Shown here: positions 1 through 57,923 of the stretch, piece by piece
Layout: every line of letters starts with the position of its first letter
How positions within the stretch are numbered: the stretch's first letter is position 1
Assembly (NCBI GenBank): GCA_041665345.1
Contig: JBAYJA010000002.1
Location: 97,252-161,251 of the forward strand
Direction: 5' to 3'
Length of the DNA stretch: 64,000 bases
DNA from: Patescibacteria group bacterium
Lineage (GTDB): Bacteria; Patescibacteriota; Patescibacteriia; PEXW01
Made by a program: the position numbers and the translations under genes
Notes under the pieces: model-generated
The model's input: only the letters and a program-made list of their open reading frames with translations
What the model was told of the DNA's origin: nothing
Databases searched by the model: none

Positions 1-229
1 GCGCTTTTTTGTGCAAGTCGCACATGAACAGCGAATCGATCTGCCGGGCGATCGTCGGTTCGAATCTGAGCCGGGTATTCACCTCCCGAGCGGCCAGAGT
101 GTACTTTTCCTGCATGCCGAAGATTACCGCAAACACACTGTCGGCCTTCGCCTGCAAAGACACTTCTGGTGTTTCTATTCGCTTGCTGTAGCCGTTCGAC
201 AACAGGCTGCAAAGAAGAATCGTTGCCAT
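1..229 (-). CDS. Hypothetical protein, 5' portion (gene runs off window start)
   Basis: Reverse-strand ATG at 229 opens a frame with no stop through position 1 (76 codons read: MATILLCSLLSNGYSKRIETPEVSLQAKADSVFAV...). No strong RBS and no recognisable domain. Confidence 0.25.
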   Translation of the reverse strand, partial: MATILLCSLLSNGYSKRIETPEVSLQAKADSVFAVIFGMQEKYTLAAREVNTRLRFEPTIARQIDSLFMCDLHKKA

Positions 230-405
230 CGTGAGAATAAACCAAATGGGCGGGCAACTCCTTGCTAGCGTTGTGGATTTGGGTGACTCTACTTTCATGT
301 ATCCTCCTAAAGTTTCTGTGTTTCTTCCTCAACCTCAACTCATTCAGTATGAACGAATTGAGGAAAGGAGGCGAGCAAACGAAAGGTCTGCTCGCCCCAA
401 AAAAG

Positions 406-1782
406 CTACGATTTACTAAAACCAAAAAGGACGAAGGCGATAGTTAAACAACCAATGTACAGGAGGTAACTTTTTCGCCGTTGCTGGTAGTCTAATGCTC
501 GCCAATCGTATTCGCTCGCACGTTCCTTACGGAGTTTGAATTCCGTAAGCATGAGCGACCAAAAGTATACCAACAGCAAGAAGAAAAATCCAGTCTTGAA
601 AATGAAATTCACGACCCCGCCAAAACCAAAAACAAAAATTCCGAGACGGATAACGAATTCTTTTCGAGCCACGCGTGGCGTACTCTGCAGAAGTTTCCGA
701 ATAAATCGTCCTCCATCCAAAAACCCAAGCGGGATAAGGTTGATGAGTATGATCCAGCCATTGAGCAGCAGAATAATCTGAAACTCGCTGACCGTGAATT
801 GCTGGAGGAGAGTAAGCGCGCAGGATATTCCAACGAAAACGAACTGACCGTACACGCCGGCGAGGAAGATGTGCATTTGCTCGTACCAAGGAAGTTCTTC
901 TACTTGCGCTTCAATTTTCTTTGAGAAGATTACACCACCGATGAGTGGCGTGAAGACCATTAGACAGTACATACGGTGCCGCGCCATTGCAAGCCAATGT
1001 CCCATTTCATGGACCAGGAGAATGACAAAGAGCACCGCCGCTGCAAACGAAGCATTTTCAAACGGGAGTAAGTAACTTCGCATTGCATAAATACCAAACC
1101 AGGTTACTACGGCAGACCCAATAGCTAGCACGGGGTAGCCAATTTTCCTCGCGATCGCTCCTTTACCACGGCCCCTTAGCTGTTCAACAATTTTTTGGAT
1201 TGGATCCTCATCCATTACCCAGAAATAGTAGAGCAGGCCTAGCCAGCCATGGGCAATCCCAAATGCAATGAGATTTGGTTCATGTTGGTAGAGCAGGGAG
1301 AAGATGAATCCCAGAACAACCGTCGCCGGCATGAGCCAGCGGTTCGGGACATGTAGCAGCATAAATGCAATCGCTGTCACAATAGCGATGGGGATTGGCG
1401 ACCATCCTAAGCTAGTCATCTTCATGTTTAGGTAGCCCAGAATGAGAAACTGCTGCGCAAACCCGAAGAGCGGGTAGAGCAGAGCGCTTATGGTCATGTG
1501 GCTATTCCATTTAAGTGTTCTCGGGGTGCGGAGTGCTGCGAAGAGCAGCATAATAATAACCCCGACAACCATTAGCAGGATTACCGGTCGGATCCCAGCA
1601 AACCAGTCATCCGTACGGATGCCAAGCTGTGGCCAGGAAAGTCCGGAGGCTACTTGACTATAGCCGAACCAACCTACGACCAGGACGAGTATTCCCACTT
1701 TGACCACGATTTTTTCCTTCAGTGCTGAAGGAAGGCATGCGTAGACCAGCAGACCCACAAAAACGACGATCAACTCGATCAC
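406..1782 (-). CDS. M50 / site-2-protease-like membrane zinc metalloprotease
   Basis: 458-aa polytopic membrane protein with HEMGHWLAMARH (HExxH inside a hydrophobic stretch) and the downstream NLIPLGFLDGGRF (LDG) motif typical of the M50 family. GTG start at 1782 preceded by GAGGT. The leader hairpin module lies upstream (1783-1917). Confidence 0.55.
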   Translation of the reverse strand: MIELIVVFVGLLVYACLPSALKEKIVVKVGILVLVVGWFGYSQVASGLSWPQLGIRTDDWFAGIRPVILLMVVGVIIMLLFAALRTPRTLKWNSHMTISALLYPLFGFAQQFLILGYLNMKMTSLGWSPIPIAIVTAIAFMLLHVPNRWLMPATVVLGFIFSLLYQHEPNLIAFGIAHGWLGLLYYFWVMDEDPIQKIVEQLRGRGKGAIARKIGYPVLAIGSAVVTWFGIYAMRSYLLPFENASFAAAVLFVILLVHEMGHWLAMARHRMYCLMVFTPLIGGVIFSKKIEAQVEELPWYEQMHIFLAGVYGQFVFVGISCALTLLQQFTVSEFQIILLLNGWIILINLIPLGFLDGGRFIRKLLQSTPRVARKEFVIRLGIFVFGFGGVVNFIFKTGFFFLLLVYFWSLMLTEFKLRKERASEYDWRALDYQQRRKSYLLYIGCLTIAFVLFGFSKS

Positions 1783-1917
1783 TTTCTACCTCACTTTGTT
1801 TGTGTTTATTCTCCTTTCCACAGCACAAGATTGTTCTGCGTTGGAAAGGAGAGACAGGTCAGAAATATTCCAACCTGTCATCTTTGAAAGAGCGAAGCGA
1901 GTGTAATTGTCCCGCGT

Positions 1918-3402
1918 TTACTGCTGTTTTGTGATGCGGATTAGTCGGCGTGTTATATAGTAGTACACCTGCCGGCCGGTTCCACGAACGACAATGGAAA
2001 GCAGATACTTTCCGGTTTGCAGTTTTTTGGGTAACGTGATTTTCAGCTGTAGCGTTACATCCATTTGTGTGGCGGTGCGTTTTTCCCGCAGTAAGGTTTT
2101 GGCTTTCACCCCGGTGGGTTCGTCCTTTCCTTGCTCCATCACCGCCGGCATTGTCTGTTGCCACATCCCGCTTGGGTAGGGCTGGTTCAGGCTGTCCGCA
2201 ACCACGTAGGGTTGGCCAGTGATGATTGAACCTGGTGTGGTATTGGAAACGTCTGGCAGGCGTAGCAACGTTGCTCTTACCTCAAAAGTTCCTGTGTCAG
2301 GGAGCTTTACCTCAGCGTAGAGTGGTAAAATCGTACCAGGCGTAAACCAGGCTTCGGGGTTGTTGTACAGATTGGTACTGTCTCGGACAATGCCCGGCAG
2401 TACGTTGCCACCCATAGCGCTGCTTGACTGCAGGATGAGCACGTCGCTCAGGTGGTTTTTGACTGGAATGAGAATATCAAGCCAGAGGTTACCCACATTG
2501 AGGCTATGCCCAGCCACTGTAAGTCGTGCGTGGTAGTGGCCCGGTGGAATGTCCGTCAGCCGCAAGCACCCCATTGCTCGGATCAAGTGGCGATCCTGGC
2601 GCTGCGTTGCCTGAAGAAGGCCACGCAACATTTGGAGATTTGCGGTTGTACTGTCTGCACATATTTCATTTGCTTGCAGACTGTCGAAGAGCTGAACGCG
2701 CATGGTGAGCGTGCCAGCTTCCAGAGTGAGACCAGTGAACTGATTCCCCGGAACCCAGACCGTGAACCACGCCTCCGTACTTCCATCTGGCGACGGAAAT
2801 CTGGAAACTTGGACAAACGGCCACATTGGATACGCTGTGGGAAATCCTTCATCCATTGGAATGATTCTGGTTGGGTAGTGTTCGCCAGCTTTTGACTGAC
2901 AAGCAATCTCCAACCCTTGGCGCATTGTGGCTGTTGACCGCCAGATGTAAGTCCAGATTGAGCAGGTGTCATGACCGTTGGCACAAGTGCCAGGAACGAT
3001 GAGGACATTGCTCGGTAGTCCATTGATGATAAATAGTGCCCAACGCACGTCAGGCTCAACTGCATCAATGGACGTACCAAAGTAGTTGCTCTGCGCTGCT
3101 CCTTTGCAGGCGGCAAGAGTCTGCTGGACTTCCTGCCAACGCTCAGGGTGGTCTGCTGCCCACGCGTCAACACGTTCTTGGAAGTGCCGGAGGTCTGGCA
3201 TTTTTACCAAAACCTTCTTTACAAACTTCGCATCAAGAATTTGGAAGAGTGTATACATCTCTCTGACGTATGCATCTTGTATCGAATCCTGTACTGCAAA
3301 GCTTTTCACGCCAAACTTTTGTAATGGATGAAATTGCTGTGCTTGGCAAACATGCGTCATGCCAAGAATAAGCAAAGCCATGCCAAGGCATTTCGCTACC
3401 AT
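1918..3402 (-). CDS. Secreted hypothetical protein (494 aa)
   Basis: N-terminal signal peptide MVAKCLGMALLILGMTHVCQAQQ. RBS AAGGAGG 6 nt before the ATG. The conserved two-hairpin leader module lies upstream (3403-3545). Confidence 0.55.
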   Translation of the reverse strand: MVAKCLGMALLILGMTHVCQAQQFHPLQKFGVKSFAVQDSIQDAYVREMYTLFQILDAKFVKKVLVKMPDLRHFQERVDAWAADHPERWQEVQQTLAACKGAAQSNYFGTSIDAVEPDVRWALFIINGLPSNVLIVPGTCANGHDTCSIWTYIWRSTATMRQGLEIACQSKAGEHYPTRIIPMDEGFPTAYPMWPFVQVSRFPSPDGSTEAWFTVWVPGNQFTGLTLEAGTLTMRVQLFDSLQANEICADSTTANLQMLRGLLQATQRQDRHLIRAMGCLRLTDIPPGHYHARLTVAGHSLNVGNLWLDILIPVKNHLSDVLILQSSSAMGGNVLPGIVRDSTNLYNNPEAWFTPGTILPLYAEVKLPDTGTFEVRATLLRLPDVSNTTPGSIITGQPYVVADSLNQPYPSGMWQQTMPAVMEQGKDEPTGVKAKTLLREKRTATQMDVTLQLKITLPKKLQTGKYLLSIVVRGTGRQVYYYITRRLIRITKQQ

Positions 3403-3545
3403 CGTAGCCTCCTTTTGTGTTTTTGTTCTTTTTCAAAACATAGAGTTACCTTCTATGCTTTGAAAAAGAGGCGAGTGCTGGGATGGACCAGACACTCGTC
3501 CTCGAAGAGCGAATTTTTGTGCTGCGCACCTTTTTGAAGACTGAC

Positions 3546-3995
3546 CTATTCTAGATCATTCAGGATAACGAAAATTTTTCCTCTTTCGTCAATTCTGATT
3601 TCATCCATGGCCGGGTCATCATCCAGGTTTGCTTGCGCTCCCGCGACAAAAGTTTCGCCATTGTCTTTCGACGAAATGCAGAACATGTACGGGCTGTCGT
3701 TTGGGATCTGTACTTCTTGTGTTGGCTCGGATCCTGAACGGGGCTCCAGAGCAAGTGTGGGGATGCTACTATCGGCGCAAACGGTTGCAAAATCAGAACC
3801 GTAGTAGTAACCATGCTGTGTCTTGAAATCTTCTTGCGCCTTATATATTTGCATAAGGCACGCTTTGGCTTCTCTCTGCGGTGTGTGAACAATTATTGGA
3901 ATGATCAAGGTTGCTAAGATGCCGATGATGACAACGACGATCATGAGTTCGATGAGGGTGAACCCACCCTGGTTTTTGGTAATGTGATTGCTCAC
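3546..3995 (-). CDS. Type IV pilin / pseudopilin with prepilin N-terminal methylation motif
   Basis: Short leader ending in G, then FTLIELMIVVVIIGILA (Phe+1 and Glu+5 of class III signal peptides). GTG start with AAAGGAG RBS. Immediately downstream of signal peptidase I on the same strand. Confidence 0.75.
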   Translation of the reverse strand: MSNHITKNQGGFTLIELMIVVVIIGILATLIIPIIVHTPQREAKACLMQIYKAQEDFKTQHGYYYGSDFATVCADSSIPTLALEPRSGSEPTQEVQIPNDSPYMFCISSKDNGETFVAGAQANLDDDPAMDEIRIDERGKIFVILNDLE

Positions 3996-4042
3996 GCAAT
4001 CTCCTTTCGATTTTGGGTTATTGGTTTTGAATGACGTTAATA

Positions 4043-4666
4043 CTACAGGCCGCAGAAAATTCGTTCTGCATGGAGCCCGTTATTCCAGCTCCAGTACGTG
4101 CAGACTGCGAGGCCGACAATTTGGTCATTGGGAATTGCACCCAAGTATCGGCTGTCGAAGGAATCGTCACGGTTGTCGCCCATCACAAAAAAGTGATCAT
4201 TGGGTACGACGTAGGGACCAAAGAAGTCCCGAGGGGAATTTTGCTTGGGGTAAGTCTTGGTGTCCCCATGCACTGCCTGCGGAGGCAGCGGGATAAAGAC
4301 GTTATTGACGAATAGGTCTTTATTTCGTACTTCCACCGTGTCCCCAGCAAGGGCGACGCAGCGTTTCACAAAGTCCGTGTTGCGTTCCGGCACGTGGAAG
4401 ACCACAATGTCATCGACTGCTAATGTACCCAGCTTGTAAACAATGATAAAGTCACCGGTTTGCAAGGTTGGGGTCATTGAGTCGCTGCTGATTCGAGACG
4501 CTTGCGCGCAGTACACTCGACTAAGTGTCGCAACCACAACTCCAATTACCAGCCAAAGGCAAACGGGTTTCCACCAATTCTGTACAAATTGGAGGAATTT
4601 TGTGGTTTTGATTCTCGCTCGACCGCTTTCATATGGAGCAGTCCCTCGGGTTATTTTTTTTTCCAT
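4043..4666 (-). CDS. lepB: Signal peptidase I
   Basis: Catalytic-Ser box SDSMTPTL, box D KRCVALAGDTV and box E GDNRDDSFDSRY. N-terminal TM anchor. GGAGGT RBS 6 nt before the ATG. Confidence 0.8.
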   Translation of the reverse strand: MEKKITRGTAPYESGRARIKTTKFLQFVQNWWKPVCLWLVIGVVVATLSRVYCAQASRISSDSMTPTLQTGDFIIVYKLGTLAVDDIVVFHVPERNTDFVKRCVALAGDTVEVRNKDLFVNNVFIPLPPQAVHGDTKTYPKQNSPRDFFGPYVVPNDHFFVMGDNRDDSFDSRYLGAIPNDQIVGLAVCTYWSWNNGLHAERIFCGL

Positions 4667-4777
4667 TTTCCAACCTCCATTTTTTCATTTTTTTCTTTTT
4701 CTCAAACCAGGAATGCTCATGGGTTGGGAAAAGGGGAGGAAACACTTAGGTTTCCTCCAGAAGTGCGCTCTGCTTTC

Positions 4778-4906
4778 TTACTTGCTCACCCGGCAAGCAT
4801 GAAAAAGCGGTGCGAGCACAGCACCTGGCAGCGTTGCCGGTAGGCAGCCGACTACCAAAATTCCGGCGAAAAGGTACATGACGAAGTTGCTGAAAAATTT
4901 CAACAT
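4778..4906 (-). CDS. Small hydrophobic ORF (42 aa), not in the ORF track
   Basis: ATG at 4906 preceded by GGAGGAG. Reads MLKFFSNFVMYLFAGILVVGCLPATLPGAVLAPLFHACRVSK, stop TAA at 4778-4780. It sits behind a complete copy of the hairpin leader module (4926-5001), like its neighbours. Confidence 0.3.
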   Translation of the reverse strand: MLKFFSNFVMYLFAGILVVGCLPATLPGAVLAPLFHACRVSK

Positions 4907-5008
4907 TAGCTCCTCCTGATTGATGTTTTTTCTCTTTCCTCAGCCCACAGTATGGGCTAAGGAAAGAGGTAGACTTCGGGTGAAGCTGTCTACCAAAGCT
5001 TACTGAAA

Positions 5009-5269
5009 TTACCAACGATCCATTTTTGGGATCGGGACGTACGGGATGCACCCTGCGGTGGAAAGTTGGTACTTCCCGTCCTGCAGAATGCAGGATGAGC
5101 GAAAGCCACCAGAGGCTTCGTTGAGAACGACAACGTGAAGGCCTGATTTTGTAGTATTGCGCAGTTCAAAGATGAAATGCGGAATAGTAATTTTTTCTCC
5201 AATGCGCACTGGTTTGCCGTCACATTCGACTTTGCCGGATTTCACCGTAATGAACTTTACTCTGTCCAT
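5009..5269 (-). CDS. Hypothetical protein (86 aa)
   Basis: ATG with GGAGG RBS. The leader module lies upstream (5270-5392). No recognisable domain. Confidence 0.45.
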   Translation of the reverse strand: MDRVKFITVKSGKVECDGKPVRIGEKITIPHFIFELRNTTKSGLHVVVLNEASGGFRSSCILQDGKYQLSTAGCIPYVPIPKMDRW

Positions 5270-5392
5270 GTCTAACCTCCGATTTGTGTTTTTTTCTCTT
5301 CCTCAATCCTCGAATTTACTCGAATGCTGGGGAAGAGAGGCAGATGGTTAGTCTGCCTCTGGAAAATTCTAAATGAGCATTATGACCATTCA

Positions 5393-5968
5393 TTACACAA
5401 TGGCCGGTGACAGTTCCTTTCCGACTTCCGGGGCATCGTCTTGAGGACTGCTATCCACCAGAAGTGAGATACTTCTGCCAGCAAACAGCGCTACTGCGCC
5501 AAACCCAATGATTATGAGGAGCATGTTTAATTCCATTGGAAACATATTGAAGAATAGGTCCGAGGCTGTTTCAATGAAACACGCCCAATGAGCTACTCCG
5601 ATGATGCTGCAGTAGAAAATTGCAAAACCAATTATCCGCTGAAGTTCTTTACTGTTGATTTTGAACTTCCTGGCCGTCAGACCACATGCAAGCAGTCCTA
5701 CGGTCATGGCCAAAAACTGCCAAACCGTCGATGTGTAACTTTCCGTACGATCATGCGCGCGTAGAAAGTAGTCGCCGTTCGGTGCCTGATAGACTTGGTC
5801 GATCTGGTGGCGAAGACCTAGCACGCGGATTAAGCTCAATTGTTCAGTTTGCATGCCTGGAAAGTGCTGAATCTTGAACGTTTCATTCTCAGCCGGAAAT
5901 ACCATATAAAACATGGTAATCAGGCTGAATGCAAATACGATTGCAAGGGTGGTCATGAAGATTTTCAT
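5393..5968 (-). CDS. Polytopic membrane protein (191 aa)
   Basis: At least 4 hydrophobic helices. AAAGGA RBS. Leader module 6001-6076, nearly identical to the one at 4926-5001. Confidence 0.5.
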   Translation of the reverse strand: MKIFMTTLAIVFAFSLITMFYMVFPAENETFKIQHFPGMQTEQLSLIRVLGLRHQIDQVYQAPNGDYFLRAHDRTESYTSTVWQFLAMTVGLLACGLTARKFKINSKELQRIIGFAIFYCSIIGVAHWACFIETASDLFFNMFPMELNMLLIIIGFGAVALFAGRSISLLVDSSPQDDAPEVGKELSPAIV

Positions 5969-6155
5969 TTTTCTGTCCTTTCAGATATGTATTTTATTCG
6001 TTTTTTCTCTTTCCTCAGCCCACAGCATGAGCTAAGGAAAGAGGTAGACTTCGGGTGAAGCTGTCTACCAAAGCTTGTAATGTGCAAATTGGGTTTTAGT
6101 CCCCTCTGTCACCGAAAGCGTAGCAAAGTTTGTTTCATTTTCGCCACGACAGTTG

Positions 6156-6560
6156 CTAAATGGTTCTTTGCGGTTGCTCGTCAAGCGCTGGCCAGGGAAA
6201 TCCGCCAAGAGTATAAAATTTGGCGATGACGAAAGGTCTTGAGGTCCCTCGGTCGATGAGGTTCCCAGTCTCGATTGACGTATGATAATCGTAGTACGTT
6301 TCTTCGTACACCAGGGAATCGACGAAAAGCGTGTCGGGCTTTCTCTGCTCAAAGTGGTAATCAATAGGGACCCAGCTCACGGTAAAGGGTCTCGGGGGCT
6401 CGTATGCCTTGCCGGTACTGCGATCGACCAATACATCACACACGGTGATCGAATGCTGTTCGACCTTCATTCTGGGGTAGAGGTATCCCTGATCCCAGGC
6501 ATACCAAGTGGTAAGGGCAACCATTACCACCACGATAATAATGTTTACGACGTTTCGCAT
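6156..6560 (-). CDS. Membrane-anchored hypothetical protein, paralog of 7152-7787
   Basis: N-terminal TM then WYAWDQGYLYPR, shared with the 7152 gene. Leader module upstream (6561-6665). Confidence 0.5.
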   Translation of the reverse strand: MRNVVNIIIVVVMVALTTWYAWDQGYLYPRMKVEQHSITVCDVLVDRSTGKAYEPPRPFTVSWVPIDYHFEQRKPDTLFVDSLVYEETYYDYHTSIETGNLIDRGTSRPFVIAKFYTLGGFPWPALDEQPQRTI

Positions 6561-6665
6561 TTTTTATCCTTTCAAATAAGTGATTTACGTTTTTTTCTTT
6601 TCCTCACTAATTGATTATTCAAAAGTTGAGGAAAAGAGGCGAGTGAATGGTTCACTCGCCGGTGA

Positions 6666-6953
6666 TCAGCGTAGCCACATAATGGACAGGATCAGACTCA
6701 GCAGCCCGATGATGGTAAAGGTGATGATGAGCCAGATTGGGGTCTTGCCCTGTGGATTTTTGGGTAGTTGCGCCAGGATTTTGTGGCGCAACTTTTGTGC
6801 AGCGGGGAAGTCGATACTCAGAATTCCAATGCCAGCGAGCAGCACCAGAATGCCCGGACCTGGGCCAATGAGCATCACCAGGCCGGCAATGGTGACCACC
6901 AAGCCAGCTAAGATGCGCCCGACTTTCAGCGCTGCAGTCCAGACTCTTTTCAC
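6666..6953 (-). CDS. Small membrane protein (95 aa, 2-3 TM)
   Basis: GTG start at 6953 with GGGAGG RBS. Hydrophobic throughout. Confidence 0.45.
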   Translation of the reverse strand: MKRVWTAALKVGRILAGLVVTIAGLVMLIGPGPGILVLLAGIGILSIDFPAAQKLRHKILAQLPKNPQGKTPIWLIITFTIIGLLSLILSIMWLR

Positions 6954-7151
6954 GGTGCCTCCCTGTTGGTTTTCAGTTTAGGTTCCTTTTCCAGAGCACG
7001 ATACCATATGCTCGTACGCTAGAAAAGAGAGGGGTGGTCCAGCCGGCCACCCCAACAATTATGTTCAAAATGTACTTTGCAAAATTCCTCCTGGTAATTT
7101 TTCGCCACGGAGATCTATGCTCCACGACCAGGCCGACACAGTCCTGGGCGG

Positions 7152-7787
7152 TTACTCGTTATCGTTGCCGTTTGACTCATCCTCTTCCTGTTCACGTCGT
7201 ACTCGGGAGATTGCGATCGGTATGAGTAGTAGAAGTGGAACAGATCCTAGGGCCAGTGACGGGCTGCCAGAGTATTTATACTTCGGATCGAAGAATAAAT
7301 CCCCACCATTTGAGCACCCGACCCCCATAAGTAGGGCACTCTCAAGGGAAGTTGAATCAAACCAACTTTCTTTTGAAAGGCCAGTGGTCATTCCAAGGTC
7401 AGGAGATGAGTTCATAGGTTCAATTTTCCTGCCTAAGCATGTATGGAACTCAGCAATTGTGATCGCCTTGGTACTCCCGTTGACATGCAGGAGGCCATTT
7501 ATGAAATCCGCGTGTTCCGAGTAACCGTAGTCTTTCACATATTGGATTGTATCGACGTACACGGTGTCAGGAGTACCGCTATCAATCCTAAATAATGAAA
7601 TGAACGGAAATGGATCAAGAAAAGGTTGATAGGTTGCCCCGGTGTTCTTTTCGACGATGATGGCACTGTGGTGCCAGAATTTGCCAGTCTCCTCGAATCT
7701 GGGATAAAGGTACCCCTGATCCCAGGCGTACCAAACGCCAAATGTCAGAAAGATGGCAACAAGACCGATGTTGATGATTGTTCTCAC
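7152..7787 (-). CDS. Membrane-anchored hypothetical protein, paralog of 6156-6560 (start corrected)
   Basis: The track ORF begins at 7904 but reads through the intergenic repeat. GTG at 7787 is preceded by GGAGGA, giving VRTIINIGLVAIFLTFGVWYAWDQGYLYPR.., which aligns with the N-terminus of the paralog. Confidence 0.5.
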   Translation of the reverse strand: MRTIINIGLVAIFLTFGVWYAWDQGYLYPRFEETGKFWHHSAIIVEKNTGATYQPFLDPFPFISLFRIDSGTPDTVYVDTIQYVKDYGYSEHADFINGLLHVNGSTKAITIAEFHTCLGRKIEPMNSSPDLGMTTGLSKESWFDSTSLESALLMGVGCSNGGDLFFDPKYKYSGSPSLALGSVPLLLLIPIAISRVRREQEEDESNGNDNE

Positions 7788-8003
7788 TTTTTCCTCCTCA
7801 GGAAGTTTTTGTTTACTAAATGTGTGTTTCTCTTTCCCAATCCACAATCTCTTGCGGCCTAGGAAAGAGAGGGGTGTATGACAGCCAAACCACCCCTCTA
7901 ACAATTATGTTACAAATGTACTTTCAAAATTCCTCCCGGTTGATTTTTCGTATGGAGATCTATGCTCCACGACTGGCACGACACACGCCAGCCGATTATT
8001 CAC

Positions 8004-8282
8004 CTATGCCCGTGTCTGGTCTTGGTGCAAGCGTTTTCCCCACCATTCGAAAAGAAGTCCAAGCAGGATTGCTAATCCTGCAGAAGCAAAGAATGTCTGC
8101 AGAATTTCGACTACGCTGATCCCGGTTCCTTTGTTCGTTGTGAGATCGAGAACAATGCCAATCAGGAGCGCGGTTGTCCCGATGATTTTTTGACTCAGAT
8201 TTGAGACGCTGTATAGTCTCAATATGATGATTGCCAAGAATCCCACTACGAAGCTGAAAGTTAAACTAAATACAGTGGACAT
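8004..8282 (-). CDS. Small membrane protein (92 aa)
   Basis: ATG with AAGGAGGA RBS. 2-3 TM helices. Leader module of the 8357 / 9126 subfamily lies upstream. Confidence 0.45.
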   Translation of the reverse strand: MSTVFSLTFSFVVGFLAIIILRLYSVSNLSQKIIGTTALLIGIVLDLTTNKGTGISVVEILQTFFASAGLAILLGLLFEWWGKRLHQDQTRA

Positions 8283-8434
8283 GTGTCCTCCTTGTGAATA
8301 TTGTGGTTAAATTGTTTTTTCTCAACTGCAAAACAGAATTTTCATTCTGTTCTCTAGTCGAGGGGCAGCATATTAGAAGCTGCCCAACGAAGGTGCGAAA
8401 CTTTAGTCGACGGATAGTTATGAGTTTCTTCGAG

Positions 8435-9058
8435 TCATCTCCTCGGAAGAAGTTCACAATTACCGTCTTGAAATGCTAATACGTTTGTCAAACCCCCAGA
8501 TGGTTTGACCAAGATAGTTCGCTCATCATTTTTGCACGTTGGGTCTGGGACACTGCAACTAAATAATTTAAAATCTTCTGGCCCCTTTGGAAAGGTCGAA
8601 TCTTTGGCCGTTTCTTCATCGAGAATGACGAACAATACGTCCACTTGATCATCATGATTAAATTGTCCATGAATTTCCAGGTCGACGTTTTTCAAAACGT
8701 ATACGTTGCCCTCGGGGCAAAGCAATTTTGCTCCGTAGTAGCTTCTATCAAGAGTGGCGGTATATCCCCAGCATATTTTCTGCGGTAGGCCAATCTGGTA
8801 GAGCTCAGCGGCGCCTCCGAAGGAGATGCTATACATTGTTTGGCGATAAAGGTATTCCCTGGCATATTGCCAAACACTGTCCGGAACGCAGTTCAGCTCA
8901 ACATTCAGCGAGTCAGAAATTTGTTTTAGTTTCTGTTCCAGAATTTTTTCTTCATTCGCGACCACTTGCGCCTGTATCGTCGGCATCAGCGCCAACGAAT
9001 TCACCATGACGAACATGGCGACGAGGATTGCGAAGGTAATCAATCTTTTCATTTTCAC
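8435..9058 (-). CDS. Secreted hypothetical protein (207 aa)
   Basis: Signal peptide MKMKRLITFAILVAMFVMVNSLALMPTIQAQ. AAGGAG RBS. Confidence 0.5.
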   Translation of the reverse strand: MKMKRLITFAILVAMFVMVNSLALMPTIQAQVVANEEKILEQKLKQISDSLNVELNCVPDSVWQYAREYLYRQTMYSISFGGAAELYQIGLPQKICWGYTATLDRSYYGAKLLCPEGNVYVLKNVDLEIHGQFNHDDQVDVLFVILDEETAKDSTFPKGPEDFKLFSCSVPDPTCKNDERTILVKPSGGLTNVLAFQDGNCELLPRR

Positions 9059-9170
9059 TCCTTGTTCTTAGTTTTTATGATTGTTTGTTTCTCGACTTCA
9101 GTCCAGAATCAGTATTCTGCACTCAAGTCGAGGGGCAGCATTTTTTTTAGTGCTGCCCGACGAAAGGACA

Positions 9171-9731
9171 TTAGCCAGCAAGCGCTTGCTGCTGGATATT
9201 CACCGGCACATTGGGCACGGTGAAATAATGGTCGTGCGTAAGGAAAGAGATTCCCCTCACCCAGATTCGTACCGTTCCAGTACCAGGATTGCTGGATAGT
9301 CTTCTTTCGAAGATACCTGTTCCTGTCTGCAGTTCGAAATGGAGAGGCAGACTTTCGTTCTCAGATGCGTCAAGCACCATGTCGAACGAGGCGCTCTCCA
9401 TCCCGACTTCCATGAGGTAGTCGGTGATTTCTTGTTCGAGACCCTTAATGTATTGACGTTGTTTTTCGTGGGTCTCTTCCCGTTGCTTTCGGAACTCCTC
9501 GGCTTTGTCAGGGCCACCTATGACTCTGCCGAGCCAGTAGCCGCTAAAGACCGATTCGCCTGGAACCTTTTTTGTGATTTCAACCAGGTAAAAACCCGGT
9601 TGAGTAAAGGTCACCAAGTGTTTCGCATTTCGATCTGCGAACACCAGCGGACCTCTCATTTCAGGGTGGCCAATAACTCTGCCGTCCCATTCATCCTTGT
9701 GGAAATCCACGAGAATAATCTCAGTACTCAT
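9171..9731 (-). CDS. Hypothetical cytoplasmic protein (start trimmed to the RBS-supported ATG)
   Basis: GGAGGA RBS precedes the ATG at 9731 (MSTEIILVDFH...). The ORF-track start at 9770 lacks an RBS. Confidence 0.45.
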   Translation of the reverse strand: MSTEIILVDFHKDEWDGRVIGHPEMRGPLVFADRNAKHLVTFTQPGFYLVEITKKVPGESVFSGYWLGRVIGGPDKAEEFRKQREETHEKQRQYIKGLEQEITDYLMEVGMESASFDMVLDASENESLPLHFELQTGTGIFERRLSSNPGTGTVRIWVRGISFLTHDHYFTVPNVPVNIQQQALAG

Positions 9732-9981
9732 ACTTCCTCCGAATAATTTGTTGTTTCTTTCTCTTCTCACAGCGAGCCAGGTCTACGCAATCCCGCACAA
9801 CCCTGGAGAGAGGGAAGGAAGCGGCATGACGCAGAACCTGACTCAGTGTGAGGAGAGAAGGGAAGCCGTAAGCTGTAGAGCTGTAAGCCGTAAGGTCTGC
9901 AAGATGTACAGTATGCTTTACAGTAAAGGAGTTCCTTCTTCAGTAAAAAAGCGTTTTTATACTAGAGAAGAAGGGAGATGG

Positions 9982-10254
9982 TTAGATCTCCCGAGTTTTC
10001 CTGTAGTAAAAGAACTGGCCAAGGATGATCCCCGACAGCACTATTCCGATTGTATCCGGAATCAAAATGTAGAAATCGTTGATAGTAAGTGCATGCCAAG
10101 CTCTGCAGCTATACACGCACACAGTGAGAATGGCCAAGAAAAAGGCCGTTCCGCACCGGCGCTCTTTGCGATTTTTTAGGATCTGCATGGTAAGCCCAAT
10201 TAAGACCATCAGAATCGCAAAGGTCAGCGTTGCATATCCAGATATCTTTTCCAT
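9982..10254 (-). CDS. Small membrane protein (90 aa)
   Basis: GAGGA RBS. 3 TM helices. A TTCGTA-repeat tract lies immediately upstream (10271-10304). Confidence 0.45.
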   Translation of the reverse strand: MEKISGYATLTFAILMVLIGLTMQILKNRKERRCGTAFFLAILTVCVYSCRAWHALTINDFYILIPDTIGIVLSGIILGQFFYYRKTREI

Positions 10255-10410
10255 TGTGTATTCCTCTTTTTTCGTATATTCGTACTGATTCGTAATTCGT
10301 AAATTTTGTTTCTCTTCTTCAGGGCAAAAGTATGTTTCGCGCTAGAGAAGAGTAGGGAGGAGACGAGTTGAACGTCTGCCTCCCACTTTCAGAAATGTGC
10401 TTAGAAGACT

Positions 10411-11196
10411 TTAGAAGCTGAAGCCTACTTCAGCAAAGTCTACGTTACCATCTGGGGTAAAAGCCCGTAAGGCCTTTACCCGGATGTGTTTCGTGGCGTC
10501 GAGTCTGACGCCGAGCGCGCGGTTATGGACCTCGCCGTCGTTGACGGCGTAGAACAACCGGAAGGACTTATAGTCCAAGTTCACAATCCCAGACAACTGG
10601 TCCTCGCGACCACCGTTGTACCAGGTCTTGCCACCGTAGGCATTGACCTGGAAGGTGTGCCGAATGTTTACCTTTGGCGTTGTGAACCCCGCCGTTTTGG
10701 CAAAGTCTTCTTGCCACAGTAACTCAATACCGTGGAAGGTTAGAGCCGCTGAGAACTCGTTTGTCCGTACAGCGTACAGACTAAGTGCACCACGGTTATA
10801 CCCAACACCGATACCGTTGCCGATAAAGGTGTACGAGTTATGAACGGGGAACCATAACTTCCCGTTCAATTCATTTGGGGACGGCGTAATCTGGCCGGCT
10901 GCGGTGAACGTCGCACCGACGTAGAGAGTTGCCTCCCCATCGAAGATACTCTTCGGTACGCAGCCCTGAGCCGCGATTACCGTATTCGAAGCGAGGTCGT
11001 ATTGAAACTCGCCGCGGATACTGTCAACGTGGAGGGTCAGTTTGGAAACCGCCCACCGATTCGTGAACGACTTCACAGAATCATGCGGTGCCTGGGTCAT
11101 GATATACCCACCAAACTTGACGCTGTCCACTTGCGCGAACAGCGAAGTTGCCATCACAAGGACGGCAATGATCGAAATGATAACTGACTTAAACAT
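10411..11196 (-). CDS. Secreted beta-rich protein, possible outer-membrane beta-barrel
   Basis: Signal peptide MFKSVIISIIAVLVMATSLFAQV. Alternating hydrophobic pattern, and the C-terminus ...DFAEVGFSF ends in Phe (OMP-like signature). AAGGAGA RBS. Confidence 0.45.
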   Translation of the reverse strand: MFKSVIISIIAVLVMATSLFAQVDSVKFGGYIMTQAPHDSVKSFTNRWAVSKLTLHVDSIRGEFQYDLASNTVIAAQGCVPKSIFDGEATLYVGATFTAAGQITPSPNELNGKLWFPVHNSYTFIGNGIGVGYNRGALSLYAVRTNEFSAALTFHGIELLWQEDFAKTAGFTTPKVNIRHTFQVNAYGGKTWYNGGREDQLSGIVNLDYKSFRLFYAVNDGEVHNRALGVRLDATKHIRVKALRAFTPDGNVDFAEVGFSF

Positions 11197-11330
11197 TTAA
11201 TTCTCCTTGCCCAAAGCCCTGGGCGTTTTATGTCATTTCTTAAATTATCGTTCTCAAGATTCTAACCAGTGAATTACTTCATGGGTTAGAGAGTGAGGGG
11301 GAGGCAGAATGGAACTGGCTCCCCGTAATT

Positions 11331-11681
11331 TTACAATTTTAGCCTCCTTTGCAGAATTTCTAACCCCGTCTTTTGGTTTTTCACCAAAATGATCGGCAGT
11401 TGATTCTCCCGAATGATCTGAGAAATGCTTTCGCTGAGCCCGGCGATGATGAGAAGATTGCTACTCCCCAATATTTCCCGGCAACTCTGCAGGGAATTAA
11501 TCCCCTCAGTCGTCATTTTGCCCACACCCTCCATTGAGAGGACATAGGATACCCTCGTTTTCTTTCTGACCTCTTGAACTAGGAGTGCGCCTCCTAGTTT
11601 ATCGAGCGACCCTCGGCAGGTGATGATCCTGATATCTTCATCGCCAAAATTTTTCAATGAGAGCATGCAATCTCCTTGCAT
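11331..11681 (-). CDS. STAS-domain-like protein (116 aa)
   Basis: SpoIIAA-like size and pattern. AAGGAG RBS. Paired with the downstream STAS gene. Confidence 0.4.
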   Translation of the reverse strand: MQGDCMLSLKNFGDEDIRIITCRGSLDKLGGALLVQEVRKKTRVSYVLSMEGVGKMTTEGINSLQSCREILGSSNLLIIAGLSESISQIIRENQLPIILVKNQKTGLEILQRRLKL

Positions 11682-11783
11682 TTGTTCTTGATTATTTTCG
11701 TTCTCACTGTTTCAACCCATGAACCATTTCACGAGTTGGAGGATGAGGGGGAGCCAGAGTAGTACTGACTCCCCGAAATATCG

Positions 11784-12128
11784 TTACGGTAATGCCGCTA
11801 TTCTCTCAAGGGCCGCTTTCTCGTCTTGAGCGATCTCGAAGATAGCGGACAGCTGAGTGATCTCCATCATCTCTTGGATATACGACGCCAGATCAGTGAG
11901 AACAAAGCGTCTGTTTGCCAGCCGGCAAAGCTTGAGGCAGGTGACCAAGCAGCCAAGGCCCGCGGAGGTGATAAAATCAACTTCCTTGAGGCAAAGGAGG
12001 ATTGGACCCGTTCCTTGCTTTACGATTTCCTCGACCTTCCTTTGCAGTATTTCTCTGCTTAAGATGTCGATTCGACCTTTGCAATGAAGAATGGTCGCCG
12101 AACCTTCGTTTCGGATTGTGATTTCCAT
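11784..12128 (-). CDS. STAS domain anti-sigma-factor antagonist-like protein
   Basis: VDFITSAGLGCLV motif typical of SpoIIAA / RsbV STAS domains. 114 aa. Confidence 0.55.
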   Translation of the reverse strand: MEITIRNEGSATILHCKGRIDILSREILQRKVEEIVKQGTGPILLCLKEVDFITSAGLGCLVTCLKLCRLANRRFVLTDLASYIQEMMEITQLSAIFEIAQDEKAALERIAALP

Positions 12129-12149
12129 GTTTTTTCTCCAAACTTTGGA

Positions 12150-12419
12150 TTAAATAGTTCTGTACCAACTTGCCCCATTCATTAGTTGGACATAGCGAAC
12201 CGGACAATGTTTGCAAGTCCGGGTATGGTATTTCGTTTTTGGTTCAGATGAACCAGTTGGCTGTTTCGTGAACCCGTCAATAATTTTCGCTTCCTCAATT
12301 CGATAGGTCCATACGGCCCAGTGCAGGCGACCTCGGAAGTGAATATTCGGGTTGAGGACGCAGATGAATACGGCGACTAGGAAAGCCACAAATAGTGTCA
12401 CGGTGATAAATTCGAACAT
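12150..12419 (-). CDS. Small membrane protein (89 aa) with CxxC
   Basis: N-terminal TM. C-terminal TCKHCP. AAGGAGA RBS. Confidence 0.4.
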   Translation of the reverse strand: MFEFITVTLFVAFLVAVFICVLNPNIHFRGRLHWAVWTYRIEEAKIIDGFTKQPTGSSEPKTKYHTRTCKHCPVRYVQLMNGASWYRTI

Positions 12420-12557
12420 TTTTTCTCCTTGCCCATTTCTGAGTTTTTTGCTTGTTTACTTTTTTCTCACTTCTCAGCACACTGGAATGTCCTAAGAAGT
12501 GAGAGGCAGCCGGCGGTTAATGCGACGGCTGCCTTTCTCTTAAGGTTCGTTTTTTTG

Positions 12558-13061
12558 CTAGCCAATAGCTTTGTGGAAACGTTTCCAATATTCGTCGTCC
12601 ACACAGGGTTCGCCATCGTCGGTCATCGGAACTTCCAGACTAAGGGTCCAGAGCCCGTTGTATTTTTTGGTAGCGCGGATAACGCTACCGGTTTCACGAG
12701 ATTCGAAGAGGATACTCTTCACCGTCGCATTGGTGAAGACGTAGATCCCATCGGATTCGACGCTTGTTCCGTCGGGTCGTTGGACGAATTCAGTCCCGAA
12801 TAATTCCGGACACTTCGTTAAGTTGTCTTCCATCGTCCATTCTCTTGAGCCGTTCCAATGCGGCGTATTCCAGTACGCCTCCATGAGAACAAACGGGGTT
12901 GTTACCAACCCTTTGTCCTTGATAAATTGCGCAAACCTTTCTGCACAATCTTCAGGGATGACGGCAATGCCGCGTACAGCCACAGCAACAACCTCAAAAT
13001 CAACCTCATAAATTCTCTTTATGATACTGGTTGACACTTGAATCGAACTTTCCTGTAACAT
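12558..13061 (-). CDS. Hypothetical protein (start trimmed to M12)
   Basis: GGAGAAT RBS 5 nt before the ATG at 13061 (MLQESSIQ...). No recognisable domain. Confidence 0.45.
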   Translation of the reverse strand: MLQESSIQVSTSIIKRIYEVDFEVVAVAVRGIAVIPEDCAERFAQFIKDKGLVTTPFVLMEAYWNTPHWNGSREWTMEDNLTKCPELFGTEFVQRPDGTSVESDGIYVFTNATVKSILFESRETGSVIRATKKYNGLWTLSLEVPMTDDGEPCVDDEYWKRFHKAIG

Positions 13062-13180
13062 TTTATTCTCCTTTGCCTTCTCAGGCTTGCGCAAATATTG
13101 TTTTTCTCACTTCTCAGTACACCGTTATATGTCCTAAGAAGTGAGAGGCAGCCGGCGAAAAGCGTCGGCTGCCAAGTAAC

Positions 13181-13357
13181 CTACGTCCTGGTCTGATTGC
13201 TAATTTTTAGCACCAGAATCGTGGTGATGATTACCATCACCACACTCAGGATCGAGAAGGCCAGTGTGGCCTTCATGTTCTGCGCCATCATGGCGCAGAA
13301 CGCGAGAATCAGGGTAATAGAGTGGCAGACCAATATTCTGAAGATTTTTTCTAACAT
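13181..13357 (-). CDS. Small membrane protein (58 aa; start corrected)
   Basis: The track ORF start at 13441 lies inside a leader block shared with the non-coding 11716-11745. AAGGAGA RBS precedes the ATG at 13357 (MLEKIFRILVCHSITLILAF...). Confidence 0.4.
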   Translation of the reverse strand: MLEKIFRILVCHSITLILAFCAMMAQNMKATLAFSILSVVMVIITTILVLKISNQTRT

Positions 13358-13496
13358 TTTTTTCTCCTTGCCCATAGTCTTGGGCGGTATGTTTGTGTTT
13401 ATTGTTTCAATCTCATAGATCCAACCTATGAACCATTTCACGAGTTGGAGGATGAGAGGCAGCCGGCGAAAAGCGACGGCTGCCCTCGAAATAGAG

Positions 13497-13703
13497 CTAG
13501 CGACTTTTACTGATGATTACCTCAGCGGGGACGACGCCGAGAAGAAATTCTGCGAACACTGCGAAGAAGCAGTAGACCGCGATTTCCAACCAGATCAACC
13601 CACCACCGGAAATGCCGATCATTCCGGTGATTGCCATGATCATTGCAGTGGCTACCATGACGGTAAACCATACTGTAATGAAATCCCACTTCATTTTTCT
13701 CAT
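13497..13703 (-). CDS. Small membrane protein (68 aa; start trimmed)
   Basis: AAAGGA RBS before the ATG at 13703 (MRKMKWDFITVWFTVMV...). Most upstream gene of the co-directional array. Confidence 0.4.
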   Translation of the reverse strand: MRKMKWDFITVWFTVMVATAMIMAITGMIGISGGGLIWLEIAVYCFFAVFAEFLLGVVPAEVIISKSR

Positions 13704-14680
13704 TGTTTCCTTTCGTTGGATTTCCTCACTGTCACCCGCACCAGTCCCTCCGGACTCATGCGGGCGGACAGTGTGCCCGAACGACAAACTGTTCAGGACA
13801 CTAAATAAAACAGACCCTCTTCTTTTTATAGGAGAGAGTCTGTTATTGGGTTGTAATCATAAGAATAGATAAATGAATAGTGAAATAATTGCAAATTATC
13901 CAGTCGCTTGTCGCAGCTTTCGCCGCGTTGTTTACACCAACCCACTGGTAGCGGGTAAGGTGCTCTCTCCGTCGACCCCCCAAGCGAAGAGGAGACGACT
14001 ATGGCACTATTCGGTTTTCAACGTTCGGACAGGCCGCTGAAATAACCAGTTCTAGCGTAACGGGGGAGTATATACTGGATTGCCAATCCTGTCAATACCT
14101 AAAAAGGCTAAGGTTAGCCAAAAGGGCTTAGATTAGCCAAAAATACTTATGGTAGATTGTTACGTCCCGCCACCGAGGCGGGATCCCGCCTTCCTTTCCT
14201 CAGAAGTAGAAAGTGGCGGGAAATTACGAAATGAAAGGAGTTACGCCCCGCGGAGCGGGGTCCCGCTTCGCGGGAAATATACGAATTACGAATGGGGATA
14301 CGGATGAATGGAAGGGATGGCAGGACGGGTTTGATTCTTGGATAATGACTGGTTCAAGTAATACAAGGGTTTGCCTGGTAAGGACTACCTCCCCCTACCC
14401 CCTCCTTCGAAAGGAGGGGAGGGTGTTTTTGGTTATGTACAGACCAAGGTGTATTTGTACGTTTCCTCCCCTTTCGAAGGGGAGGACAGGTGGGGTAACC
14501 CTTACCGGGTGAAAGTATGAATATGAACCCAGCTTTCTCCTTACGCCATACTTCTGCTATGGGGTATTGACAAGCTCCAAATACCATGCTACCTTTAGTT
14601 GTTTTTCAGGTAGTGCCACGCAAGGTGCAAGGAGCAACAAGCGTGGTGTTGGGTGATTAACTTTCCAAGGAGGAATTTGC

Positions 14681-20595: not shown

Positions 20596-20787
20596 AAAAT
20601 TATTTACTTAAGTCGTCATGGTTCAAGACTGACGAGCGTTTTCCATTAGGGCTACCTCCCCCTACCCCCTCCTTCGAAAGGAGGGGAGGAGTTTCTTTAG
20701 TCACCCATACTCCTAGCTATCCCAAACCTTAACCCTCACACTATACTCGCCGCTACACCGAAACCCATGCCTCAGCTTGTGCCCCCC

Positions 20788-24387: not shown

Positions 24388-24597
24388 GCACGACGAATTA
24401 CCACCCCGGCCTCGAGTACGAGGCCGCCCCTCCTCGACGAGGAGGGGATAGGGAGGTGGAAAGTGCCACCAGCGTGATGATTGTCACCTCTTGTATCCCC
24501 TCCTTGCATAAGGAGGGGACAAAGGGGAGGTAATTCTCTCTATCTCCAACCTCTACCCATACTTCAATCCTTACCTAAACCTTCAATCTCTCCAAAC

Positions 24598-37781: not shown

Positions 37782-37913
37782 AGTACCTCCTGGTTTTTTT
37801 TGTGTTCAGCAGAGTGTAGCATTAGGTTGCAAACCGTCAAGCGCACATAAAAAAGACCCACCCTCCTCCGCCACTGCTTTGGAGGGCAGGCCAGGTAAGG
37901 GTGGGTTTGATAC

Positions 37914-57913: not shown

Positions 57914-57923
57914 GGCAGTATTT

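Follow-up and report, generated by a model that had tools for sequence, protein, structure and literature searches.

Mosaic two-hairpin units between the genes of a Patescibacteria array: candidate RNA punctuation whose ends may serve as recombination joints

A stretch of 64,000 nucleotides from an uncultured, ultra-small Patescibacteria group bacterium (assembly GCA_041665345.1, contig JBAYJA010000002.1, positions 97,252 to 161,251; hereafter the window) carries at its left end a gene array whose spacers are the subject of this study. A composite unit of two abutting hairpins has been found in these spacers, occurring on the mRNA strand in 21 of the 21 array intergenic regions (IGRs) longer than 50 nt, with 19 units lying within the window (324-13,485, all on the minus strand). 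The unit sequences vary from one to another, while the architecture is constant. On balance, it is probable that the region is the core of an operon-like array for small cell-envelope proteins in a chromosome of the Candidate Phyla Radiation (CPR), transcribed as one unit, in which the two-hairpin units act as intercistronic RNA punctuation of one long operon and their shared ends double as recombination homologies. From the sense-strand bias in folding described below, the units most likely act in the first place as RNA, with recombination as a consequence.

The array takes up positions 1-13,703 of the window, where genes lie on the minus strand only. As judged from open reading frames (ORFs) and translations, this is the bulk of a co-directional array of about 15.5 kb and some 25 small genes, 21 of them inside the window, which runs on for about 1.6 kb past the left edge; L001 denotes the window's own contig read in coding orientation, reaching 4.6 kb beyond that edge. 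The products are small proteins, in the main membrane-bound or secreted, together with an S26 signal peptidase, a pilin, two STAS proteins and an Rce1/M50-like protease (Pfam), and hydrophobic segments occur in 19 of 25 array proteins. The window belongs to a metagenome contig of 1.08 Mb (ENA ERZ27249449 k141_1145919). The presence of hrcA-grpE-dnaK, dnaJ and cysS in it indicates a bacterial chromosome, and its DnaK is closest to those of Patescibacteria/CPR metagenome-assembled genomes (MAGs), with 94% identity to GCA_964493065.1 and 72-78% to Kerfeld-, Uhr-, Magasanik- and Moranbacteria. The array is flanked by promoters and T-run terminators of the canonical kind that this genome uses. At its end, a textbook hairpin + T7 terminator (L001 17599-17640) is followed by a textbook promoter of the next genes, an arrangement also seen in the related locus L086. 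A consensus scan detected two weak promoter-like matches (9/12) on the coding strand within the array IGRs. The three junctions lacking a unit are STAS-STAS, FHA-FHA and S26 peptidase-pilin, where the IGRs are short and coupled (21, 28 and 47 nt).

Architecture and distribution of the units

Read on the coding strand, the order of elements runs from the stop codon through a variable 3' stretch to a first stem-loop (SL1), a second stem-loop (SL2), an A/C-rich linker, a Shine-Dalgarno sequence (SD) and the next start codon. SL1 is a GC-rich hairpin with GG at its start and CC at its end, and SL2 adjoins it with zero spacer in every unit. The 5' arm of SL2 is a pyrimidine run of 7-10 nt (CUCUUUCC, with the variants TCTTTCC, TCTCACTTC and CTCGACT), a matching run of purines (...GGAAAGAG) makes up the 3' arm, and the apex varies. 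The linker that follows is unstructured (AAAAAAC, AAACA), with a small third hairpin (SL3) in some units, and the SD lies 5-9 nt ahead of the start codon in nearly all of them. The units of the window, together with the array itself and one long hairpin, are listed below.

Co-directional gene array, 1-13703, minus strand: from ORFs, translations and Pfam
W01, 13411-13485, minus: SL1 13458-13485 (GGGCAGCCG...CGGCTGCC), SL2 13411-13457 (TCTCATCCTCCAACTCG...); SL1 common to W02 and W03, SL2 to W05
W02, 13105-13173, minus: SL1 13147-13173, SL2 13105-13146
W03, 12465-12533, minus: SL1 12505-12533, SL2 12465-12504
W05, 11703-11774, minus: SL1 11748-11774 (GGGGAG type), SL2 11703-11747 (W01 type)
W06, 11253-11324, minus: SL1 11298-11324, SL2 11253-11297; upstream of gene A
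W07, 10312-10384, minus: SL1 10355-10384, SL2 10312-10354; between genes A and B, orthologous in all related genomes
W08a, 9933-9992, minus: SL1 9973-9992 (overlaps the end of gene B), SL2 9933-9972; directly repeats the base of the W07 SL2
Unit b, 9757-9865, minus: long hairpin of about 105 nt
W09, 9091-9158, minus: SL1 9133-9158 (GGGCAGC...GCTGCCC), SL2 9091-9132 (CTCGACT...AGTCGAG)
W10, 8321-8385, minus: SL1 8363-8385, SL2 8321-8362; both types as in W09
W11 (long), 7830-7990, minus: conserved upstream segment with near-invariant ACCAGGAGGAATTTTG.AAAGTACATTTGTAACATAATTGTT, SL1 7869-7898, SL2 7830-7868
W12 (long), 6983-7140, minus: upstream segment of W11, SL1 7031-7053, SL2 6983-7030 with replaced apex
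W13, 6596-6660, minus: SL1 6638-6660, SL2 6596-6637
W14, 6007-6069, minus: SL1 6043-6069 (GGTAGAC...GTCTACC), SL2 6007-6042; upstream of the 191-aa gene
W15, 5296-5359, minus: SL1 5337-5359, SL2 5296-5336; SL2 type also ahead of gene F in L087
W16, 4932-4994, minus: SL1 4968-4994, SL2 4932-4967; 97% identical to W14, upstream of the 42-aa gene
W17, 4695-4758, minus: SL1 4735-4758, SL2 4695-4734; upstream of the S26 peptidase gene
W19, 3427-3498, minus: SL1 3472-3498, SL2 3427-3471; upstream of gene H (494 aa)
W20, 1810-1879, minus: SL1 1853-1879, SL2 1810-1852; upstream of gene R (458 aa)
W21, 324-398, minus: SL1 370-398, SL2 324-369; SL2 common to the next unit past the window edge and to L086

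The units are specific to the array. A strict scanner, requiring a GG..CC hairpin that abuts a pyrimidine/purine-armed hairpin and is followed by an A/C-rich tail, picked out 10 separate units within 323-13,173, every one of them on the minus strand, where about 0.07 would be expected per 13 kb. The same scanner gave one marginal match in the remaining 50 kb of the window, about 15 matches across control loci of 80 other genomes that total 1.43 Mb, and none in 7 kb of L086 outside its array. A generic tandem-hairpin scan was set aside as noisy, with 147 matches vs about 65 in shuffled sequence. Rfam covariance models gave no match at gathering thresholds over the whole window and none at E<=1 over positions 1-14200. 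A metagenome pattern scan for the commonest SL2 type returned three unrelated chance matches, and no unit copies were detected in the viral contigs scanned. No description of such units in CPR bacteria was found in the literature, of which the searchable part is incomplete.

Mosaic units, shuffled genes and rival readings

Similar units recur in the window beside genes which are unrelated by BLASTP, as mapped by all-vs-all BLASTN of the IGRs. An earlier note on this DNA had reported a shared block of 76 bp ahead of a 42-aa and a 191-aa gene; it is borne out as 77 nt at 4925-5001 and 6000-6076 with two mismatches (97% identity between W14 and W16), stopping exactly after GAGAAAAAAC, and no BLASTP similarity has been detected between the two products. 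The sequence CATGAACCATTTCACGAGTTGGAGGATGAG, also described there, occurs exactly at 11718-11747 (2 nt from where it had been placed) and with one mismatch at 13427-13456, with zero copies expected in shuffles. As had been noted, the two copies abut different GC hairpins, GGGGAG...CTCCCC and GGCAGCCG...CGGCTGCC, and the latter type appears again at 12505-12533 and 13147-13173. The pair GTCGAGGGGCAGCA...GCTGCCC was likewise recovered at 8357 and 9127, with zero expected by chance and unrelated genes of 92 and 205 aa behind it. The blocks of 113 bp at 7017-7129 and 7861-7973 had been called near-identical, which overstates their similarity: they are about 80% identical with gaps (80.6% between L001 7984-8110 and 8829-8950). 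Unit by unit, the SL1 GGCAGCCG..CGGCTGCC is common to W01, W02 and W03; W01 and W05 have SL2 in common and different SL1s; W02 and W03 share both hairpins, as do W09 and W10; W21 and W22 share SL2 and not SL1; and W11 and W12 share an upstream segment of about 100 nt and SL1, with different SL2 apices. The SL1 and SL2 types combine independently.

Tandem segmental duplication of a gene with its spacer, followed by decay or divergence of the duplicated ORFs, might be suspected from the fact that similar units are often neighbours (W01-W03, W09/W10, W11/W12, W14/W16 and W21/W22), and one paralogous gene pair (211 and 134 aa) is indeed present. This explanation is already largely refuted and has very little probability left. 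The similarity ends at the unit edges, and the flanking genes have no residual similarity in DNA or protein, so that duplications with degraded paralogous ORFs do not account for the sharing, in agreement with the earlier note. The sole paralogous pair carries differing upstream units, the two hairpin types recombine independently, and orthologous genes have different units in different genomes. A contrasting case lies at 37536-38575 (minus strand), where repeated cassettes stand between three small paralogous genes in tandem (81, 82 and 83 aa). Unlike the array units, these cassettes comprise a canonical terminator (GACCTGCCCTCC...GGAGGGTGGGTC + T-run), a promoter (TTGACGG...TACACT) and a leader; they are true terminator-promoter cassettes, and the case is one of simple tandem duplication.

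Further arrays were found through relatives of the S26 peptidase and of protein A: L086, L087, L088 and L089, and the more distant L093, L094 and L096, in which the A protein is about 40% identical and the GC content is 52-57%. L086 comes from the MAG with the 94% DnaK match. Three other loci (L002, L003 and L005) belong to the same strain as the window (99.98% identical) and thus provide no evolutionary information, and the 458-aa array protein found no relatives besides itself in the contig scan and protein search. In all seven arrays, SL1, SL2, an A-rich linker (with SL3 in some) and the SD occur at the same locus, beside the same divergent Peptidase_C39_2 gene. Nucleotide identity of the window to the L086 genome is 85% in the hrcA-dnaK region, 70-78% in the array coding sequences and 84-97% in the units, meaning that the non-coding units are held at or above the housekeeping level while the proteins around them evolve fast. 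At the protein level (window 4043-4666 and 25091-27001 against L086/L006), identity is 54% for the S26 peptidase, 39% for the pilin, 34% for the FHA protein and 94% for DnaK, and protein B (90 aa) is 94% conserved between the same two genomes. The fast divergence of the array proteins suggests diversifying selection or allele replacement at an envelope locus.

Gene order differs from genome to genome, as shown here:

Window: A B C D E F [95] F' [191] [86] [42] S P H R ...
L086: A B D S P C FHA 64
L087: A B D E' F S P C R [A24] H
L088: (unit)(no B)(unit b) [294] D E F S P

Gene families have been reordered, gained and lost, with gene orientation unchanged. In four genomes, the unit ahead of the S26 orthologue is a different one each time. 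The W14/W16 type occurs, whole or in part, before the window genes of 42 and 191 aa, before S26 in L088, and before H, R and S26 in L087. The proposal of the earlier note that the modules assort apart from the ORFs, through recombination at or within them, agrees well with these data, in which unit types are swapped across genes and genomes with orientation kept.

Breakpoints between genomes fall into three classes of position within or at the units. The first lies about 25-45 nt 5' of the start codon, at the SL2 end or the A-run, as for gene H, where homology between the window and L087 begins at -29. The second is the SL1|SL2 junction or the inside of the shared pyrimidine tract: R and its SL1 are common to the window and L087 with a different SL2, while C, its SL1 and TCCTTTCCT are common to L086 and L087, after which SL2 diverges. 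The third lies upstream of SL1. SL1 mostly tends to stay with the upstream gene and the SD-proximal linker with the downstream gene, SL2 being the swap zone and the most promiscuous part. The modules are more than the leaders that they had been called: SL1 tends to go with the 3' end of the upstream gene, and the last 25-45 nt or so (linker and SD) go with the downstream gene. Gene B offers a case of loss. It is located between two directly repeated units with a common SL2 base (TCTTCTCTAG...CTGAAGAAG), and L088 is without gene B and has a single unit left, which is the pattern expected of recombination between flanking units; variable spacers preclude a base-exact reconstruction.

As to how such shuffling might come about, the unit types are bound to keep their ends (..CC|TCTYTYCC.. 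and ..GGAARAG|AAAAAC..), and this places short homologies in direct orientation about 20 times along the array. Recombination or template switching at these shared ends would delete, insert, reorder and swap genes and half-units, which would lead to both the mosaic in the window and the shuffled gene order between genomes. The suggestion that block edges might coincide with a conserved short core is upheld in so far as short tracts (CC|TCTYTYCC and GGAARAG|AAAAAC) are found there; no recombinase and no core of attC type was detected. The boundary tracts look like microhomology kept for functional reasons.

Integron arrays possess an integrase, an attI site and attC sites with RYYYAAC/GTTRRRY cores that form a single bulged hairpin. 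It is very unlikely that the units are dedicated sites for site-specific or single-stranded DNA (ssDNA) recombination of this kind, or IS200/IS605-type hairpins cut at a fixed core, in spite of a number of likenesses: small, co-oriented, apparently promoterless and unrelated ORFs are separated by imperfect palindromes whose fold is conserved above sequence, cassette content varies among relatives, folding is strand-asymmetric, and breakpoints lie close to a short conserved ..AAAC motif. Paired RYYYAAC...GTTRRRY cores occur in 0 of 24 array IGRs on either strand, each unit has two abutting hairpins instead of a single bulged R''-L''/L'-R' hairpin, and the breakpoints are heterogeneous, lying at three unit positions and not at a single fixed one. 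The better-folding strand is the coding strand, with the purine/pyrimidine arms tied directly to the SD. No tyrosine, serine or HUH recombinase was found by Pfam in the proteins of the 64-kb window or among the flanking genes of L001, L004, L086, L093 and L094, where the neighbour is the Peptidase_C39_2 gene, and no integrase or attI was seen in the regions examined.

Mosaic palindromic modules between cistrons are also known from the BOX elements of pneumococci. Repetitive extragenic palindromes (REPs), present among others in enterobacteria, are palindromes of 20-40 bp, one end of which bears an unpaired tag (GTAG or CGTC), and form mosaic modules that are extragenic and 3' of coding regions (PMC3733652). 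The units resemble REPs, bacterial interspersed mosaic elements (BIMEs) and BOX in being mosaic palindromic modules between unidirectional genes, 3' of coding regions, with several near-identical copies per genome, and such elements are transcribed within mRNAs and can stabilise the upstream cistron. Selfish or neutral repeats of the REP/BIME, BOX or miniature inverted-repeat (MITE) kind, colonising the intergenic spaces of the locus with incidental effects on expression, are nonetheless quite an unlikely explanation. REPs are genome-wide, of high copy number, often in inverted pairs, tagged and associated with RAYT transposases, whereas the units are confined to one locus (bar the marginal match in the window, and with none in the 7 kb of L086), uniform in orientation and mostly untagged, a GTAG/CGTC-like tag near the SL1 end being present in just 6 of 37. 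Their register with the downstream SD is fixed, the SL1-SL2 spacer is zero throughout, and the architecture is kept at the same locus where proteins are about 40% identical. In addition, a separate and genuinely REP-like family of GC palindromes is present elsewhere in the window. In the defining features examined, over the window and the related loci, the units match neither REP/BIME elements nor integron arrays. The GC-rich palindromes outside the array (CCCCTCCTTTCGAAGGAGGGG with adjacent TAGGGGGAGGT, and others), at window 14391-14493, 20575-20691, 24407-24521 and 50698-50745 and at L001 17599-18321, look like the genome's genuine REP-type repeats, unrelated to the units.

A further reading is suggested by the PeSL (promoter-early stem-loop) elements of T4-type phages, whose hallmarks are an early promoter of sigma70 consensus and efficient termination (Arbiol, Comeau & Krisch 2010, PMC2839356; Comeau et al. 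2014, PMC4122927). Under it, each unit would combine a terminator (SL1) with an unrecognised promoter, making one transcription unit per gene, with shuffling as in T4-type phages. The likeness is considerable. Both are composite intergenic elements of about 60-100 nt with a GC-rich stem-loop and, at the 3' end, the SD and start codon of the gene that follows, both form dense direct repeats between small ORFan-like genes of unknown function in a hyper-variable region, indels and replacements between close relatives break at or inside the elements in both (PMC2839356, PMC4122927), and in both the element supplies the expression signals of each gene, so that shuffled genes stay expressed. The promoters of CPR bacteria are, moreover, poorly studied. 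This explanation is nevertheless unlikely. The units contain no sigma70-like hexamer pair, and 9/12 matches occur in only two array IGRs, while the same genomes use textbook promoters (TTGAC(A/G)-17-TAnnnT) and T-run terminators elsewhere. Between the end of SL2 and the ATG there are 19-45 nt, and the shortest of these stretches, of 19-26 nt, leave no space for a promoter and a 5' untranslated region. The SL1 tails make poor U-tracts, being C/T-mixed (4.1 T + 3.4 C per 8 nt, with TTTT in 5 of 37) where the canonical terminators of the same genome have 6.4 T + 0.4 C per 8 nt; SL1 could act as a weak attenuator. The absence of a promoter, the obligatory second hairpin with pyrimidine and purine arms, and the location in a CPR chromosome, apparently inside one operon, instead of the hyperplastic regions of T4-like phages, place the units outside the PeSL family.

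Some observations concern particular units and their counterparts. In the long units, a 42-nt block (ACCAGGAGGAATTTTGTAAAGTACATTTGTAACATAATTGTT) lies 5' of SL1 and is near-invariant in five copies from four genomes (window about 7900-7945 and about 7055-7100, minus strand; L086 2130-2175; L087 1204-1249; L088 2345-2390). It contains an SD-like AGGAGG, then TTG, then TAA (a start-stop) or a 5-codon mini-ORF. As a promoter this block was rejected: on reading, its best -10-like hexamer, CATAAT, is without an acceptable -35 at 16-18 nt, and the consensus scan did not flag it. Unit b is 95-97% identical in L086 and L088, compared to 85% for the dnaK region, and is conserved above every array gene; its counterparts are at L086 1473-1581, where a 73-aa ORF called across it is probably spurious, L088 205-301 and L087 551-673, and a long hairpin resembling it (CTCCTCACGCAGGATCAGG...CCTGATCCGCCGTGAGGAG) is present in L093, L094 and L096. 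At L093 9603-9667 and L096 7978-8046, an SL1 (CCGCCCAACC...GGTTGGGCGG) is followed by TTCTCTT-AGAA-AGGAGAA, in which the SD itself forms the purine arm of the second hairpin. These junctions may represent an un-insulated version of the unit, either ancestral or regulatory.

The units as RNA and the upstream leader

The sense strand of 37 curated units folds 4.7 kcal/mol better than the antisense strand (Wilcoxon p=3e-4, the units being non-independent), and 90 G.U pairs are found on the sense strand vs 37 on the antisense. This bias points to structure formed by the sense strand, most simply in mRNA. In the orthologous unit 3' of gene A, the helices are kept across seven genomes with three compensated pairs in a MAFFT alignment; since the close and distant groups are two columns out of register there, this covariation count is conservative. 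An in-silico thermodynamic test gave a mean probability of being unpaired for the SD of 0.65 in the intact unit and 0.67 in the leader alone, which fell to 0.35 when the 3' purine arm of SL2 was deleted (p~1e-6) and to 0.26 in a transversion mutant. The insulation predicted by this model offers a rationale for the conserved asymmetry of the pyrimidine and purine arms.

A mechanism may be proposed in which SL1 would serve the upstream cistron as a 3'-end hairpin blocking exonucleases, and possibly as a leaky attenuator. The pyrimidine tract 3' of SL1 would promptly be folded into SL2 by the matching purine tract, SL2 acting as an insulator that locks this anti-SD-like tail away from the next ribosome-binding site. 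In addition, SL2 might be a mark for processing or might give the downstream cistron a protected 5' end. The A/C-rich linker would then be an open landing pad for the ribosome before a strong SD, making each cistron a self-contained expression cassette within one long transcript. That transcript would probably be launched at the promoter at 14095-14067 and pass through a structured leader with a terminator/antiterminator, the features of which are as follows.

Near-consensus sigma70-type promoter, 14067-14095, minus strand: TTGACA-17-TATACT, found at the equivalent position in L093 and L094 as well
Structured leader or small RNA of about 250 nt, 13802-14062, minus strand: hairpin + T-run terminator at 13810-13850

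Downstream of the promoter lie about 250 nt without a credible ORF, the hairpin and T-run (13850-13810), about 100 nt with a long GC hairpin, and the first array gene. The layout of promoter, RNA and terminator is conserved at L093 (about 1367-1651) and L094 (about 8092-8380), and 16 of the 66 predicted pairs in the leader RNA show compensatory changes (RNAalifold, three sequences). No Rfam match to the leader was obtained at E<=1 over positions 1-14200. An invariant block, GGAGAGAG, is the exact complement of the 5' arm of the terminator, CTCTCTCC, which makes the leader a candidate attenuator that feeds the array. The modelled pairing is compatible with a riboswitch-like gate, a free-standing small RNA being the alternative.

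Several points weigh against intercistronic RNA punctuation of one long operon. Co-transcription, its start at the leader promoter, processing and attenuation are putative, all being read from sequence, and a canonical terminator is placed between the nearest strong promoter and the first array gene, so that entry into the array hinges on putative read-through or antitermination. The insulation result is partly built in, in that any freed pyrimidine tract tends to pair with the SD. The covariation of the orthologous unit is modest, with its three compensated pairs in an alignment partly out of register, and the sense bias in G.U pairs would also fit sense-strand ssDNA. Conservation extends from the stems to the loops (the SL1 loop AGCTTCACCCGAA is one case), which exceeds what a pure stability role would need and hints at a sequence-specific partner, such as an RNA-binding protein, a nuclease or a recombinase.

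It is possible, if rather doubtful, that the locus represents an undescribed cassette system without an integrase or per-gene promoters, in which a two-hairpin RNA connector is combined with a riboswitch-like gate at 13802-14062 and perhaps a dedicated factor. With direct repeats at a single locus, CPR episymbionts could then remove, rearrange and exchange genes for surface proteins there, and whichever gene lies behind the standard two-hairpin RNA would be expressed.

With regard to the surroundings of the array, its strand is opposite to that of most other window genes (1-13703 vs 15000-64000) and runs against the rising cumulative GC skew, and its transcription may perhaps be head-on to replication. 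Exposure of the units as ssDNA during replication is weakly disfavoured: the GC skew suggests that the + strand is leading, in which case the lagging-strand template would expose the antisense, with the less stable hairpins. A homologue of TrwB/TraG-like type IV coupling proteins (851 aa) is encoded beside a 977-aa Big_7 + dockerin protein at 55358-60857, a dockerin/FG-GAP protein is also present at 63232-63954, and a large Big_7 protein is encoded right after the array in both L001 and L086. These genes represent further cell-surface or DNA-transfer functions close to the locus.

Intercistronic elements in other systems and significance

The reading of the units as RNA punctuation has parallels among elements of polycistronic RNA. 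Phage T7 RNase III sites and the malE-malF REP stabiliser are intercistronic elements for processing or stabilisation. As in these, and in the intercistronic expression element (IEE) of plastids (Zhou, Karcher & Bock 2007, PMC2230500), short structured elements would divide a polycistronic RNA into stable, independently translatable units with an insulated downstream ribosome-binding site. Cleavage and stabilisation have been demonstrated in those systems and are inferred for the units, and those elements have not been described as having the fixed two-hairpin design, in which a decoy purine arm locks an anti-SD-like tract. Tandem or clustered-hairpin intrinsic terminators (Gupta & Pal 2021, PMC8355165) also have two adjacent hairpins 3' of a stop codon. 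Compared with these terminators, the units have no proper U-tract after either hairpin and have an A-run following SL2, and they lie in a co-directional array whose only canonical terminators stand at its ends.

The CPR, or Patescibacteria, make up a large share of bacterial diversity and are host-attached organisms reliant on pili and surface proteins. To our knowledge, almost nothing has been established on how they regulate or diversify the genes for these structures. The locus shows a standard connector which is conserved at or above the housekeeping level and stands between genes that evolve fast and undergo shuffling. Should the RNA roles be confirmed, the units would constitute a natural form of operon insulation in which a decoy arm neutralises an anti-SD-like tail, a device of interest to synthetic biology, and a bacterial counterpart to the PeSL mechanism of phages, with expression signals doubling as recombination joints. 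The use of conserved regulatory spacers as recombination joints is of a kind already known; the present case comes from a poorly known lineage, and its proposed RNA mechanism is plausible. A dedicated trans-acting partner, as hinted by the conserved loops, would raise the novelty of the system if it proved true. Together with its candidate cis-regulatory leader, the locus provides a testable handle on surface variation in uncultured episymbionts.

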